In this document: positions 48,001 to 60,000 of the stretch, piece by piece
How the letters are laid out: each line of letters starts with the position of its first letter
Numbering within the stretch: position 1 is the first letter of the stretch
IMG/VR virus record: IMGVR_UViG_2703718787_000017
Source: a virus
Lineage: Duplodnaviria; Heunggongvirae; Uroviricota; Caudoviricetes
Reading direction: 5' to 3' (one strand)
DNA length: 64,000 nucleotides
Position numbers: made by a program

Positions 48001-51000
48001 CTTCACTTAATACGCCGGAGAATCTTGATGTCCTTTCCGGGGTGTTTGGCCCGGAACTGCAACAGCGTATTGGCATGCCCGATTCAACCGGGAAAAAGAC
48101 GATAAAAGAGGCCAGGATTGGCAGTATAGTACCGGCACAGCAGGAAGGGTACATACTTATCGGCCTTGATCTCACATACAGTGATGGCTCTACAGCACAT
48201 AAACCTGTAACAGAATACGGCAGTGCGCACCCTGATGATCAAACCGTGCTGGCGATACCCGTTGATAAGGCTATCGCTCAGGTCAGGGATCGCAGCAAAT
48301 TTGCAGAGATATCGAAAAATTATGGTTATTTTATGCCGAAGCAGCAGGGACTTTCTCTGAAAGAGCTTCAGAAGGGGGCCAGCAACGTCGCGGCGGACGC
48401 GATCAAGAATGGCGGTAATGCACAGGCTGCGGTGGATGAATATTATGCTGCGACTGGTTCACAACCGCATCAACAGAAAATTCAGCAACAAAAACTTCAG
48501 CAACAGGTTATCAACTGGGCGGGAGATGATCCTGATAAGCTGTCATTTGCCAGAAATGTAGCGGCCCGTCAGCCTGAAATGCTGGAGCCTCAGAATCAGA
48601 AATTGCTGGAGAACGGGTATGCGAATTTTCTCCGTATTCAAAAGGCCAGGGGGGAACAGGCCAGAGATGAAAGTGCTTCATCTGCATCTCAGTTTATCCG
48701 TGGACTGAAACAGAATTACGCCCAGTAATTCACGATATTCCATTAATACCATTTCCTGATGCCCGGCCATTGTGCCGGGTTTTTTTATGGAGTCTGTATG
48801 GCCTATTCAGAGGAACAGCGTCCTGAGGCGCAACTCGGTAACCAGAATCGTAACAGCCTGAACATTCAGCAACCCGGCGAAACTGACAGCTATGAAGCAT
48901 TTTTCTCTGATCCGAATCGCTGGAAGGATAACAGTACGTCGTTCAGCCTGGGCGATGTATTGCCAACAATGGGTAAAGGTTTCGCCCAGTCCGTCCGGGG
49001 AACAGGGGAAATGGCCCGTGGACTCGGTGATGCGATGATTCAGAGCCCGGTAAAAACAGGGGCGCGTATTTTAAATGAGTTCAGCCGTATGGGGCTGCCG
49101 GGTGTCGCAACTGTGCAGGATATTTTTGCCGGTGGCAGCAGGGGGGCTGATGAGGTCATCGATACCCTGCCTGATGGCAAAAACGCGGTTACTGATACTG
49201 TCGGTAAAGGTCTGAAGGCAACCGGTAAGGCTGTCAGTGATGGTGCTGAAGCCACTGATGAATGGCTGACCGGTAAGATGTCGCCGGGTGCAGTTCGTGC
49301 GCTGAATACGCCGATGACCGAAGGCTATGATGATTCTGCGGTCTGGGTGGCGAAGGGTGTAAACCTGATTGGTGCGCTTGTACCTGATATGGTTGCTGGC
49401 GGTGTGGCTAAAAAGGTGGGTGATGTCACACTGCGAAAAATGCTGACCGCCGGGCTGGAGAAAAAATACATCGCGGCAGGGATGCAGCCGGAAAGAGCCA
49501 CGGCACTGGCAGCAGAAGCTGTCGATAAAAAAATGCCGGATTTATTCCAGGCGGGCCTGATCACCCATTCCACAGCCAGTGCACAGGGGCAGAGTGCAAT
49601 GGCGGCAGCAGATGCTGTTCTTAATGCGGATTACTCTGAGCTGGCGCAGTCACCGAAATTTCAGCAGACGTTTTTGTCCATTGACGCCGACCCGCAGCAC
49701 GCACAGCTTACTGATCGCCAGAAAATGGATCTGGCAAAAGAGCGTGTTGCCGATGAGGTGCGCGCGCAGCTGGCAACCGATCCTGAATTGCTGGCTGTGA
49801 ATGCCATGGCGGCAAAACTGGGTGACGCACAACTGTTTAATCTGGTGACACGAGGCACAGCGAAGACCGTTAAAAGCGGCATTGTCAGAAATGCCACGGA
49901 ACAGGGGGCGATTAATGCGGCGCAGGGCGGCTATTCACGCTATCAGGAAAACACGGCATTGCGTGAGACCGCCGGAATGGATGTGTCACCGTGGGAGGGC
50001 GTGGCTGACGCAACGATCGAAGGTGCAGCCTTTGGTGCTGCGATGGGGGCTCCATCCGGTGCGGTTGCCGGATATCGTGGCAGACGTCAGGCCGCAGAAG
50101 AAGCAGCCATGCGTGATGCTGAAACCGTGCAGCAGGACGACGCAGCCCCGCAACCAGAATCTGTTGATCCGGTGGCGCAGCATCGTGAATCCATGCAGGG
50201 GATGAATCGCGAGCAGCTTCTGGAGCAGTATGCTGATGCGGATATGGCAACAGAGGGGGACGCATCCGCAGCTCATCGCCGGGAAGCTGCCAGCCAGTTG
50301 TTGAATGAACTGGACGAACAGGCGAAGCGACAGGCTGTGATGAATGAGCTGAAGGCGAAGCCGCGTTCTGAACTGCTTGAGGAATACCGCAGACTCAGCC
50401 AGAAAGAGGAGCGCACCGAGACTGAAGAACAACAGTTTCAGGCAATACGAGAAGTCATTCGCCCACAACAGGAAGTGACGCCGGAAGCACAGTCACAGCC
50501 TGAAAATGCGGAGGATGGTAACGGGAGCATTTACCCGACGGTGCGGTTCCGGGACCCGAATGAAGTCCGCATTGAAATTAACGGGAATGGTGCGTCCAGA
50601 CCAGCGGAACGCATTGAAAAGGTGCGCCCGGACAACCGTTATTTCACGGATGAGAAAAGCGCCATGGGGAGTGATGTTTTCCGTAATGCCGCCGCCACCG
50701 GCCTGAAACCGTCCGTAGTGAAGAAAGGCGAGACTCAATATGCTGTTGAAATGGATAATCCTGCGTTCTCTGAAGATGTGGCAACGGAAACCATTAACAC
50801 CCTGGCTGACGGAGAGCGTATTGCTGATGCTGACCCGATGGAGCAGCCCGCGTTCATGCGTGACCCACGATTCCGTGGTTTCACGGGGGATGATACGGAG
50901 GTACAGGCCCGCCTTGCCCGTGGCAACGTGCCGACGGCAGAGGAGCTTGTACGTTCACAGATGGCTGAAGGTGATGCCGGTCCGACAGCACAGGAGTTAA

Positions 51001-57000: not shown

Positions 57001-60000
57001 TTATGCAGGATACCCGGAAGAGACTGAAGGATTTGCGTAAACAGCGTGATGCCATTTATGCCGACAGTTCTCTCAGTCTGGCGCAGCAGGCGGCGATAGT
57101 GAAATCGGTAGAGCGGGATATGAAGGTTGCCGTGGATCGCTTTAACCGCGAGTACAACAAAAAAGTGGGAGTGGATTAACAGAAATGGCCCCGTACGGAA
57201 GTGCGGGGCTGATTAAGGAATAAACACACATTAACCTGTAATAACCGGAGCTATTAACATATAGTCAGAAAGAGTATTTCATGTGAGACAGAGAGCCGAT
57301 TTATGTTTAATGAAGAAAAAGTTGCGCAAATGGCAGCGTATTTGCTGAAAAAGCATGGCGGATCTATGCGTTTCATTAAGCTGATGAAGCTGATGTATCT
57401 CTCTGACCGCAAAGCAATGGAGTCTTTAACCGGGAAGGGGAGAGGTTTGAATGCTCCCCCACAATTCCCCGGCATCAAATCTCCATGCAGGTGAACTATT
57501 TTACCCCCAGCGGCAAATCGCAAAAACAATCAGTGCGATCGAAATGGCAGCCACTACAATTGCAAATGCTTCAGGCTAGGTCATTGGCTTACCTCCTTCG
57601 GCGGTTCTGGTAGCGGCATCCAGTGGGTTACTTCTTTGAGATGCAGGTCTTCGCCATCACCGTCATCCCAAGTGGGATTGCCATCATTAAACCAGTCGCC
57701 ATATACGCCGACCTGAGTGTTGGGGATGCTTGGTGGGTAGTTGTTTTTAAAGTCAGCTGCTAACACATAGTATTGTCGCTCTCCCATTTCTGGCATTCGA
57801 TCACTACAGCTTATCCAACCATCCGGAGTTACCGGAACTGGCGGAACGGCTGTTTGCTCTCGAACGTCATTAGTCGCTATCGGTTCTGCTGCCAACTGAC
57901 TGGCATATTTGTTAATGGTAACGATAAGCTCTTGCTCAGCCTCATCCAGACAATCACCGATACCTCGCCTGTCACCGTCAAAATCATCGAAATCGGCACG
58001 AATCTTGGCAACCTTCTGGATTGCGGACAACACCTCACTAGGAATTACCGGATAGTTGGTTGACGTTTCCGCGATTTCCCGAAAATTATTGGTTGACGAA
58101 TTCTTGTTTTCCCGAAAGTTTCCGGACTGAAGCATGGCGGCGCGGCAGGCATTCCAGCCTCTTACCTCTGCAATAGCGGCAACCGCATCAACCGCGTACA
58201 TGCTAAGAGGATTAGGCATTGGTTTTTCTTCCGGTACTACTGGTGCTGGAGGGGCGGCGTAAATGCCCTCTATCACTAAATGTTTGCGCTCAAAATCATC
58301 TGGCTCTCGATGATATACGTAACTCCAATCACCAAGGTTATCATTGCGCCTGCAACGGAAACCTATCGGCTCGGCTTCCAGCGCTGCCAGAGCAATTCGT
58401 GCCAGTTCTTCCGCTTCTTCTGCTGGCAGTACAACGTTGCTACCAGGTCCGTATGTTTCGCGCCACTGCTTGATTGTCAGTAGTCGCTCTTTGGTAATAG
58501 TGATCATGCCGCGTTTCCTTCTTTCTTATTAACAATTACACCGTCATATATTTCATTAAGGTGCCCTCTCAACTCCATGCGCCTTAATGCAGATAACATG
58601 TAATCGCATTCAACCTGCTTATTCCCAATAAAAGGTTTATCTTCAGGGTTACCCCAACAGCAATTCCCCTTGGGCCATCCATGTACTTTCCGTACTCTTC
58701 CGTTAACAACGTGAAGTAATCCCCAGCCAGGTGGTAAATCCTCAATTGAAATAATTCCCGGCTCACTAATAAAGAATCGCCAGTCGCCCATTCCAAGAGA
58801 CGGATTTTTACGAAAACGCTTTTTTCTATCTGCCAACAAGTCAGCACGAGAACATTTCGCCTCTATCAGGCATGATGCTGAATTTCTGAATCCCATAGCA
58901 TCTGGCTGTTCTCCGGTACTGGTTACAGCTATAAAGCGGTCATGAAAACAAACCTTGAACCCGCTGCGCTTAAGGAACTTGTACGCAATCTGACAGAGTT
59001 CGCGGTGTGTTAACGCCATATCACTCTCCTTTGATGCGAATGCCAGCAAGCCAGTTTCTTATGCCGATATATTCAGCGTTCCGGAAACCGCTTTTTACAT
59101 ATATAAATGGCAAGCGAAGATTGTGACCATTGACTGCCAGGTAGTCTTTACAACCCTGTTCGGTGAAACAGCAGGTAACGAATTCATCAATATCTTTCAC
59201 AGCAACGCGCCGCCATTTTTCTGGTGGCTCTCGAAAGTTTTCATGAAGTAGCTCGAGACGACGACTATGGCGTTTATTGGCTTCATTGCCATCTTCGTCA
59301 ACCCAGACAATCCGGTCATGGTCATAATCAGCATCAACAACGATTTCGCGCTTTTGATACACACAAAACATGGGATCTGACGTTATTCGATTGTCCTGTG
59401 TTCGAATATTTTCACCGATGATGCCAAACGAATCTGGTGCAGATTTTGTCTGCATCTCTTCGATACGTTCAGCCATCGCAGCACACTCTTCAAAGTTGCT
59501 TAATGCTTTTCGCTCCCATTCGGCGCATTGTTTTTCCAGTTCTGCTATGCGCTTACTTCCATCCGCGATTACTCCCTCGTAATATTCACGCTGCTCGTTG
59601 AGTTTTGATTTTGCTGTTTCAAGCTCAACGCGCAGCTTCCCTACCGTAAGCGCAATATCCTCGTTCTCCTGGTCGCGGCGTTTGATGTATTGCTGGTTTC
59701 TTTCCCGTTCATCCAGCAGTGCCAGCACGGTAGCCGGATTGGCTGCGGCGATGAATTCAGCATTGGCCTGCTGTTCCATTTGGAAATCTTCATCGAAACC
59801 GCTTTCAGGATGTGCTCCTTCAATTCTGCAAATGGGAATATATCCAGCAGCCTCGCGATGAATTAGTGCATCATCACCATCAAATCGGTTCTCTCCATAT
59901 TCGAGCGACCACTCACCACGCGTTGCTTTTTCTGCCTTTTCACGCAGTACCTGATAGTTAATCTCGCTCATTTTTCTCTTCGCTCCGGTATACAAGAATT

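Follow-up and report, generated by a model that had tools for sequence, protein, structure and literature searches.

Domain architecture and a proposed ejection role of the giant virion protein of short-tailed Stx phages

Short-tailed phages that carry Shiga toxin (Stx) genes spread these genes among E. coli and Shigella, and the giant gene that ends their late operon has been studied in the phages Sp5 and phi24B. We analysed this gene in a stretch of viral DNA of 64,000 nucleotides (nt; IMG/VR record IMGVR_UViG_2703718787_000017), called the window below, which is a short-tailed Stx-converting prophage of the Sepvirinae. The gene encodes 2,793 amino acids (aa) and is the same gene as Sp5 ORF80/ECs1242, phi24B gp47 and gp68 of Shigella phage 75/02 Stx (97-99.9% nucleotide identity, 2,793 aa and last in the late operon), and the Sp5 phenotype and the phi24B proteomics apply directly. 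The 75/02 Stx gene is 99.9% and the VT2-Sakai/Sp5 gene 97.3% identical to the gene of the window; the differences from the three described genes are allelic only and fall mostly in aa 801-1200 and aa 1801-1900. We suggest that the protein is probably an encapsidated and ejected pilot and effector-delivery protein of the short-tailed Stx phages.

In Sp5, deletion of ORF80 left excision normal while plaques and lysogens were lost (Mondal et al. 2016, PMC5155283). The defect was rescued in trans, and the mutant contained DNase-resistant packaged DNA at normal amounts. The 421-aa gene immediately upstream, Sp5 ORF79/ECs1241, was likewise found to be essential in that study.

For phi24B, a preprint (10.64898/2026.04.10.717836) reported gp47 in purified virions, where it was not visible in the cryo-electron microscopy maps, noted LPD5, LPD1, LPD38 and 'MuF-C' in it and proposed an encapsidated ejection protein; a place inside the head is concluded there from its abundance together with the lack of density, and about 36,000 'ejected' particles were sorted apart. 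According to the supplementary table of the preprint gp47 accounts for 10,962 peptide-spectrum matches (PSMs), second to the capsid protein, and its counts peak in the top two slices of the gel (2,188 and 1,686 PSMs); the other counts are 1,634 for gp48, 523 for gp51, 129 for gp50 and 13 for an 86-aa protein. The peptide sheet holds totals with no per-slice counts, and the slice profile is read at the protein level only. The gp47 peptides span the N-terminal module, the linker, peptidase 1 (including GNGPGALAHEWFHSLDNYFGR, which bears HEWFH), MuF-C and the C-terminal module described below. When the PSMs per residue of the batch sample are scaled to the 12-copy portal, gp47 comes to about 20 copies as an order of magnitude, and the hexameric nozzle, as a check, comes to 6.3 by the same scaling.

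A sequence-only reading of the window had described the giant gene as the last of a cluster of putative ejection-protein genes in a podovirus-like phage, and had named virion proteomics beforehand as the test on which this could fail. The phage is a podovirus, and the orthologue phi24B gp47, which is about 97% identical, is associated with the virion. The gene, its LPD5/LPD38 annotation, its essentiality and its virion location are thus already known. What we add is a corrected domain map, a second peptidase, a chassis-plus-cargo architecture, a five-gene cassette and a cysteine-free signature; these additions sharpen hypotheses and describe no new kind of system.

Domains of the giant protein and its relatives

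The giant gene and the domains and motifs it encodes lie at the following positions of the window:

48798..57179, plus strand: giant gene, 2,793 aa, orthologue of Sp5 ORF80/ECs1242 and phi24B gp47
48798..50207, plus strand: N-terminal module, aa 1-470, with its core at about aa 140-440
50034..50072, plus strand: glycine zipper G413xxxG417xxxG421xxxG425, which ends the N-terminal module and is 86-100% conserved in 50 homologues
50118..51509, plus strand: acidic Pro/Gln-rich low-complexity linker, aa 441-904
51510..52397, plus strand: conserved pre-LPD5 segment and LPD5 (Pfam aa 1051-1200)
52398..53147, plus strand: predicted zincin-like metallopeptidase domain 1, aa 1201-1450, including LPD1 (aa 1361-1440)
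52647..52661, plus strand: HEWFH, aa 1284-1288, followed by D1291
53226..53792, plus strand: predicted zincin-like metallopeptidase domain 2, aa 1477-1665, of the HExxxH clade; the most widespread domain of the family
53448..53465, plus strand: HEIIHH, aa 1551-1556
53880..54308, plus strand: MuF_C/PBECR domain with predicted RelE/BrnT-like RNase fold, aa 1695-1837 (Pfam MuF_C aa 1750-1837)
54438..57176, plus strand: C-terminal module of 913 aa, aa 1881-2793, conserved as one unit
56223..56840, plus strand: Pfam LPD38, aa 2476-2681, inside the C-terminal module

LPD5, LPD1, MuF_C and LPD38 all score above their Pfam gathering cut-offs (E-values 1e-44, 1e-23, 2e-17 and 4e-48), in line with the large polyvalent protein proposed by the sequence-only reading. 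By its domain sequences we class the Stx-phage giant as a phage-type large polyvalent protein. Like the polyvalent proteins described by Iyer et al. (PMC5512222), it joins several unrelated domains in one giant encoded among virion genes, and it has in common with them both special zincin types, PBECR (MuF-C) and the phage-only LPD38. The LPDs described there are separate small domains, whereas here LPD38 lies within a 913-aa unit, LPD1 appears to make up the C-terminal half of a zincin domain, and the protein also has a conserved module at its N-terminus.

Two zincin-like domains are predicted in the middle of the protein, and both of their motifs fall outside the Pfam matches. The peptide quoted for a HExxH motif in the sequence-only reading, GPGALAHEWFHSLDNYFGRYD, is found in the protein with HEWFH at aa 1284-1288, while the second motif, HEIIHH, had been overlooked. 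In an alignment of 36 diverse homologues the domain 1 residues H1263, H1284, E1285, H1288, D1291, E1375 and E1382 are invariant. The NCBIfam model CLCA_X aligns to aa 1182-1437 (6e-44; 150 bits versus a cut-off of 260), and because it spans this range LPD1 is best seen as the C-terminal half of a HEWFH domain of about 250 aa. Iyer et al. described a type of phage polyvalent peptidase in which a His ends strand 2 and an Asp stands three residues after HExxH (PMC5512222); judging from its conserved residues, domain 1 belongs to this strand-2-His and HExxH...D type. In domain 2, R1550, H1551, E1552, H1555, E1607 and E1614 are 95-100% conserved among 45 homologous domains. Most of the relatives of domain 2 read RHExxxH, and the HEIIHH of the Stx phages represents a one-residue deletion.

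An AlphaFold model of aa 1001-1900, with a mean predicted local distance difference test score (pLDDT) of 77, contains four compact domains joined by low-confidence linkers at aa 1452-1472, 1673-1685 and 1818-1900; together with the acidic Pro/Gln-rich stretch at about aa 441-904 they show that the low-complexity linkers suspected earlier are real. The motif and the downstream Glu are borne by helices at aa 1282-1297 and aa 1373-1391 in domain 1, and at aa 1542-1561 and aa 1601-1614 in domain 2. Both domains are predicted from alignment and model to carry intact gluzincin-type sites. Fold searches with this middle model returned two classes of proteins, one of them consisting of zincins (MtfA, M32, anthrax lethal factor, Spartan/Wss1, Pro-Pro endopeptidases, minigluzincins, neprilysin, IrrE, SprT and CapP) and the other of the RelE-type RNase toxins BrnT, CdiA-CT, RelE, ParE, YoeB and YafQ. 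Foldseek gave no match of the middle model in the PDB with an E-value below 0.5, and no curated peptidase family of Pfam was above threshold for either zincin domain (Peptidase_M76 reached E 0.12). A windowed Pfam scan at a permissive E-value added nothing beyond weak hints of a glycine zipper and of Peptidase_M76.

MuF_C scores 63.9 bits in Pfam versus a cut-off of 27.6, and Iyer et al. describe MuF-C as a RelE-like 'PBECR' nuclease fold (PMC5512222). Because of the fold matches to RelE-type RNase toxins we read this domain as a RelE-like nuclease fold and not as a metallopeptidase, and on the strength of the model it may be expected to act as an RNase. The 'MuF-C metallopeptidase' of the phi24B preprint (10.64898/2026.04.10.717836) is the first of three circulating annotations that we correct. 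The others are the COG1483 AAA+ ATPase (Mondal et al. 2016) and the label 'DarB-like antirestriction' (PHROG 10089, and RefSeq for the Bcep22 group). No Walker A motif, [AG]xxxxGK[ST], occurs anywhere in the giant protein, and no ATPase, methyltransferase or helicase family of Pfam or NCBIfam matches it; the ATPase was rejected for want of a Walker A motif and an ATPase family match, and the DarB-like label for want of a methyltransferase or helicase match. The PHROG 10089 match is confined to aa 2351-2681, which is the LPD38 region. A tape-measure protein was also considered and rejected, as no tape-measure family of Pfam or PHROG matches and the phage is short-tailed.

An exhaustive representative search with the N-terminal 470 aa found the N-terminal module in 98 representatives. 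In proteins of at least 1,300 aa the matches all lie near the N-terminus, and most such proteins measure 2,000-4,665 aa; a word-indexed homologue search with the same module returned relatives only in E. coli and Salmonella. Among the Stx phages variability peaks at aa 801-1200, that is the end of the linker and LPD5 (window 51198-52397; 58-70% identity), and a second variable stretch lies at aa 1801-1900 (window 54198-54497; 73-83% identity). The peptidases and the C-terminal module are 95-100% identical between Stx-phage genera. The two variable stretches look mosaic, either recombinational or diversifying.

Relatives of the C-terminal module align across 97-99% of its length; identity is 33-55%, and about 50 positions are invariant. 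Its AlphaFold model (pLDDT 83; predicted template modelling score, pTM, 0.79) is mostly helical with one beta domain, and no solved structural relative of the model was found; sequence and profile searches of the PDB with the whole protein, the C-terminal module and the middle region gave nothing meaningful. The relatives carry other N-terminal cargo, such as an ADP-ribosyltransferase (ART), a methyltransferase or an SLT transglycosylase, or they stand alone as proteins of about 900-1,000 aa. The module occurs in 355 phage records, and beyond the Stx phages it is found in Vibrio phages of about 60 kilobases (kb), Ralstonia GP4-like and Burkholderia Bcep22-like phages, a Bacteroides phage and Bacillus podophages. 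Of 60 giant relatives, most contain peptidase 2 and 26 have the C-terminal module at the extreme C-terminus, with the reservation that some giants lacking a match to the module may be truncated or too divergent for detection. As read from these alignments, the family pattern is a constant chassis, made up of the two ends and peptidase 2, with variable domains in between.

Bcep22 gp75, JC1 gp69, BcepMigl gp16 and the Ralstonia GP4-like giants have a homologous LPD38 C-terminal module (about 27% identity over 83-85%). Like the Stx-phage giant, the Bcep22-like giants follow a virion protein of about 500 aa and close the structural operon; in BcepMigl the operon ends with a giant of 4,658 aa, placed after a virion protein of 538 aa, and in the Bcep22-like phage JC1 the genes for portal and capsid are related to their 933W counterparts. 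By mass spectrometry gp69, the giant LPD38 protein of this Burkholderia phage, is associated with the virion, and the LPD38 protein of coliphage PTXU04 (2,198 aa) is needed for efficient infection. The Bcep22-like giants differ in being 4,500-4,660 aa long and in having an N-terminal SLT transglycosylase, an Eco57I-type methylase, a helicase and PBECR1. The Stx-phage giant has none of these domains, and LPD5 and the two zincins stand in their place.

The virion RNA polymerase gp50 of phage N4 is carried in very few copies per virion, and by our rough spectral-count estimate gp47 copies are many more. N4 gp50 enters the virion uncleaved, and the gel profile suggests the same for gp47; N4 gp50 differs by its RNA polymerase module, which Pfam and NCBIfam searches did not find in the Stx-phage giant. 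In line with what we propose for gp47, N4 gp50 is a giant protein (about 3,500 aa) that is encapsidated and injected and that, according to Iyer et al. (PMC5512222), has a zincin metallopeptidase domain.

The job that we propose is alike that of T7 gp14/gp15/gp16 and P22 gp7/gp16/gp20, which are internal to the head, exit first and form a trans-envelope conduit, and the genes are in each case adjacent and late in the structural operon. Neither sequence nor fold searches found any similarity of the giant to these ejection proteins, and it has no transglycosylase domain; there the work is done by several smaller proteins, whereas here we find one polypeptide of 305 kDa with enzyme domains. The head proteins of the MuF/SPP1 gp7 type have the MuF_C (PBECR) domain in common with the Stx giant, but the latter is without the portal-associated N-terminal domain and its MuF_C is internal, not C-terminal.

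The cysteine-free cassette and the start of the giant gene

Upstream of the giant gene we note the following features:

46086..46742, plus strand: 218-aa virion protein without cysteine, phi24B gp51 orthologue; first gene of the cassette
46739..47191, plus strand: 150-aa virion protein without cysteine, phi24B gp50 orthologue
47201..47452, plus strand: 83-aa glycine-zipper protein without cysteine, orthologue weakly detected in phi24B virions
47463..48728, plus strand: 421-aa virion protein without cysteine, orthologue of the essential Sp5 ORF79/ECs1241 and of phi24B gp48
48761..48786, plus strand: terminator-like hairpin GCCCGGCcattgtGCCGGGT and T7 run (GC-rich hairpin at 48761-48780, seven T at 48780-48786)
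48789..48792, plus strand: GGAG ribosome-binding site, with a 5-nt spacer to the ATG at 48798

The giant gene is the final gene of the late operon, where the portal, capsid, fibre, nozzle and needle genes and the four small virion-protein genes precede it, and its product makes up 14% of the phage genome. That three to four smaller virion-protein genes lead up to the giant had been expected; there are four, and the phi24B orthologue of each was found in purified virions. Between positions 46086 and 57179 of the window, these four genes and the giant gene encode 3,665 consecutive residues (218+150+83+421+2,793 aa) with 0 cysteines. The cysteine share in most other proteins of the prophage is 0.5-2%; cysteine is also absent from its needle protein, its scaffold-like protein and a 129-aa protein. 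All five cassette genes have homologues in Vibrio phage D67, where the order is kept and the cassette is likewise without cysteine. The BcepMigl giant has 0 cysteines as well, and 60 giant homologues together contain 6 in 173,230 aa. The next gene upstream (133 aa) has a homologue with three cysteines in both the phage of the window and D67, and we therefore place the boundary of the cassette there. We infer that cysteine avoidance reflects selection on proteins that pass unfolded through a narrow tail channel and the oxidising periplasm.

In the 83-aa protein, labelled 'bacteriocin' in RefSeq, there is a glycine zipper of the YMGG type, and it weakly matches class II bacteriocins. It is conserved in D67, and may assist the giant protein as a small membrane-active partner.

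The terminator-like hairpin lies in the 69-nt gap that separates the giant gene from the 421-aa gene. The intrinsic terminator of the sequence-only reading is thus confirmed as a terminator-like element, a GC-rich hairpin with a run of seven T. Hairpin and T run are 100% conserved in three Stx-phage genera (Diegovirus, Traversvirus and Oslovirus). D67 has a terminator-like hairpin at the equivalent site ahead of its giant gene, and BcepMigl has a hairpin of -47.7 kcal/mol there, without a T run. The hairpin may set the ratio of the giant to the upstream protein.

A six-frame scan gives an uninterrupted open reading frame (ORF) at 48759-57179 on the plus strand (2,806 codons). The ATG at 48759, which would give 2,806 aa, was discarded because it lies within the terminator hairpin, at its foot, and has no ribosome-binding site. 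The ATG at 48798, led by GGAG, yields 2,793 aa, in agreement with the single ORF of about 2790 aa read from the sequence earlier; this is also the RefSeq length for the 99.9% identical 75/02 Stx gene and the length of Sp5 ORF80 in Mondal et al. 2016 (PMC5155283). No N-terminal peptide marking the start is among the phi24B proteome peptides listed. The start at 48759 is used in AP000363, and the six-frame ORF of phi24B extends further still.

The giant protein matches PHROG 616 over its full length. Matches to the gene were found in 186 phage records at 90-99.9% identity, all of them Stx-converting phages of E. coli or Shigella and all with the gene intact, and 427 of 5,426 complete E. coli genomes (about 8%) hold an intact copy. 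A chance ORF is discounted because of this full-length match and this intact presence.

Proposed mechanism and alternative explanations

We propose that the giant protein would be expressed late, from the Q-antiterminated late operon, and packed in the T=9 head, largely full-length or very large, alongside the four small cysteine-free proteins. On release of the tail needle it would exit via the portal and the tail channel, before or with the DNA. The chassis, made up of the N-terminal module, the HExxxH zincin and the LPD38 C-terminal module, would then do the essential step, which is most likely to build or anchor the DNA path across the envelope, probably with the four small proteins. The interchangeable middle (LPD5, the HExxH...D zincin and the RelE-like MuF-C) would be delivered as cargo. 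Once outside, the two peptidases would most likely cleave the polyprotein or partner proteins and so free the parts.

Several observations weigh against this scheme. Heads of the Sp5 ORF80 deletion mutant looked normal and did not bind an antibody to the tail fibre, from which the authors argued for a function in tail formation (Mondal et al. 2016, PMC5155283); given these data a morphogenetic function, additional or alternative, is possible, and the tail-less heads suggest to us that the protein may in addition help to keep the portal vertex stable for tail attachment. The gel profile suggests that gp47 is mostly unprocessed in the virion, therefore any self-cleavage would have to come after ejection. 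Pfam scans found no peptidoglycan hydrolase domain in the giant protein, in contrast to T7 gp16 and the BcepMigl giant, and its hydrophobic segments are of just moderate hydrophobicity. Further, ejection, conduit formation, self-cleavage and RNase activity are parts of the scheme that we infer.

If the mutant heads are taken at face value, the protein could be a tail-assembly or head-completion factor, such as an energy-using chaperone or plug, with no role after adsorption. The deletion mutant, with its DNA-filled and normal-looking heads that fail to bind the anti-tail-fibre antibody, fits this explanation, as does the COG1483 AAA+ match which Mondal et al. noted for ORF80 (PMC5155283). We nevertheless consider it unlikely: the protein has no Walker A motif and no ATPase family match in Pfam or NCBIfam, it is abundant in mature virions and not transient, it lies outside the resolved tail, and both the family-wide avoidance of cysteine and the effector-type domains would be unexpected for a chaperone. 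The claim of the sequence-only reading that the protein serves to counter host defences found no support. The orthologue is essential for plaques and lysogenisation, and this speaks for a core role. That the protein is an injected effector against defences or for host takeover, of the 'DarB-like antirestriction' kind and with no structural part in DNA delivery, is on the whole quite unlikely, even though Iyer et al. (2017, PMC5512222) proposed this purpose for the polyvalent class, PHROG 10089 matches aa 2351-2681 and the LPD5 region is hypervariable among Stx phages in an arms-race-like manner. The methyltransferase and helicase from which the DarB label of the Bcep22 type stems were not found, the PHROG match covers LPD38 only, and C-terminal modules that stand alone without cargo exist. 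That the orthologue and the LPD38 protein of PTXU04 are both essential argues for a core role in infection over an accessory one against host defences.

The phi24B preprint (10.64898/2026.04.10.717836) proposed that the giant protein acts on the cell wall, and the zincin domains might then be endopeptidases that cut peptidoglycan cross-links for the crossing of the periplasm. Some wall-breaching activity is needed, since the giant has no recognisable transglycosylase. This explanation seems very unlikely to us, as the peptidase of the preprint is 'MuF-C', which has a RelE-like RNase fold, and the closest folds of the zincin domains are protein-processing zincins (MtfA, lethal factor, SprT/Wss1, IrrE, CapP and minigluzincins), with no known murein peptidases among them. 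Each of these alternatives is less well supported than an ejected pilot protein.

A wider idea, which we put forward tentatively as possible, is that the N-terminal module, the HExxxH peptidase and the LPD38 C-terminal module, all three without a solved structural relative, form an unrecognised DNA-ejection machine common to podophages of about 60 kb with T=9 heads, doubling as a modular effector-delivery platform with polymorphic-toxin-like domain swaps. Should this be true, the lineage sharing the machine would comprise the Stx, Vibrio, Ralstonia GP4-like and Burkholderia Bcep22-like phages along with others, and the swapped effectors would be RNases, ADP-ribosyltransferases, methylases and transglycosylases. 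In that case, passage through the tail channel and the periplasm would have its signature in the sequences as the near-total exclusion of cysteine. The domain map makes the mechanism of the protein directly testable.

Prophage setting

Away from the cassette we note the following features in the window:

20064-21020: stxA, RIP domain
21804-23744: NanS-p sialate esterase
37161-39698: lateral tail-fibre gene, 845 aa; repeats of the collagen and phage-fibre types, and a Peptidase_S74 chaperone domain at the C-terminus
62198-63946, minus strand: fragment of a host molybdopterin oxidoreductase at the right end; the profile match begins at position 114

Terminase, portal, capsid and fibre genes are also present, and ARAGORN detected no tRNA genes across the whole window. 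At the site of this fibre the otherwise near-identical Shigella phage 75/02 Stx encodes one of 494 aa, so the fibre has been exchanged. The molybdopterin oxidoreductase gene seems to miss its N-terminal part, and the right boundary of the prophage is probably at about 61.8-62.2 kb.

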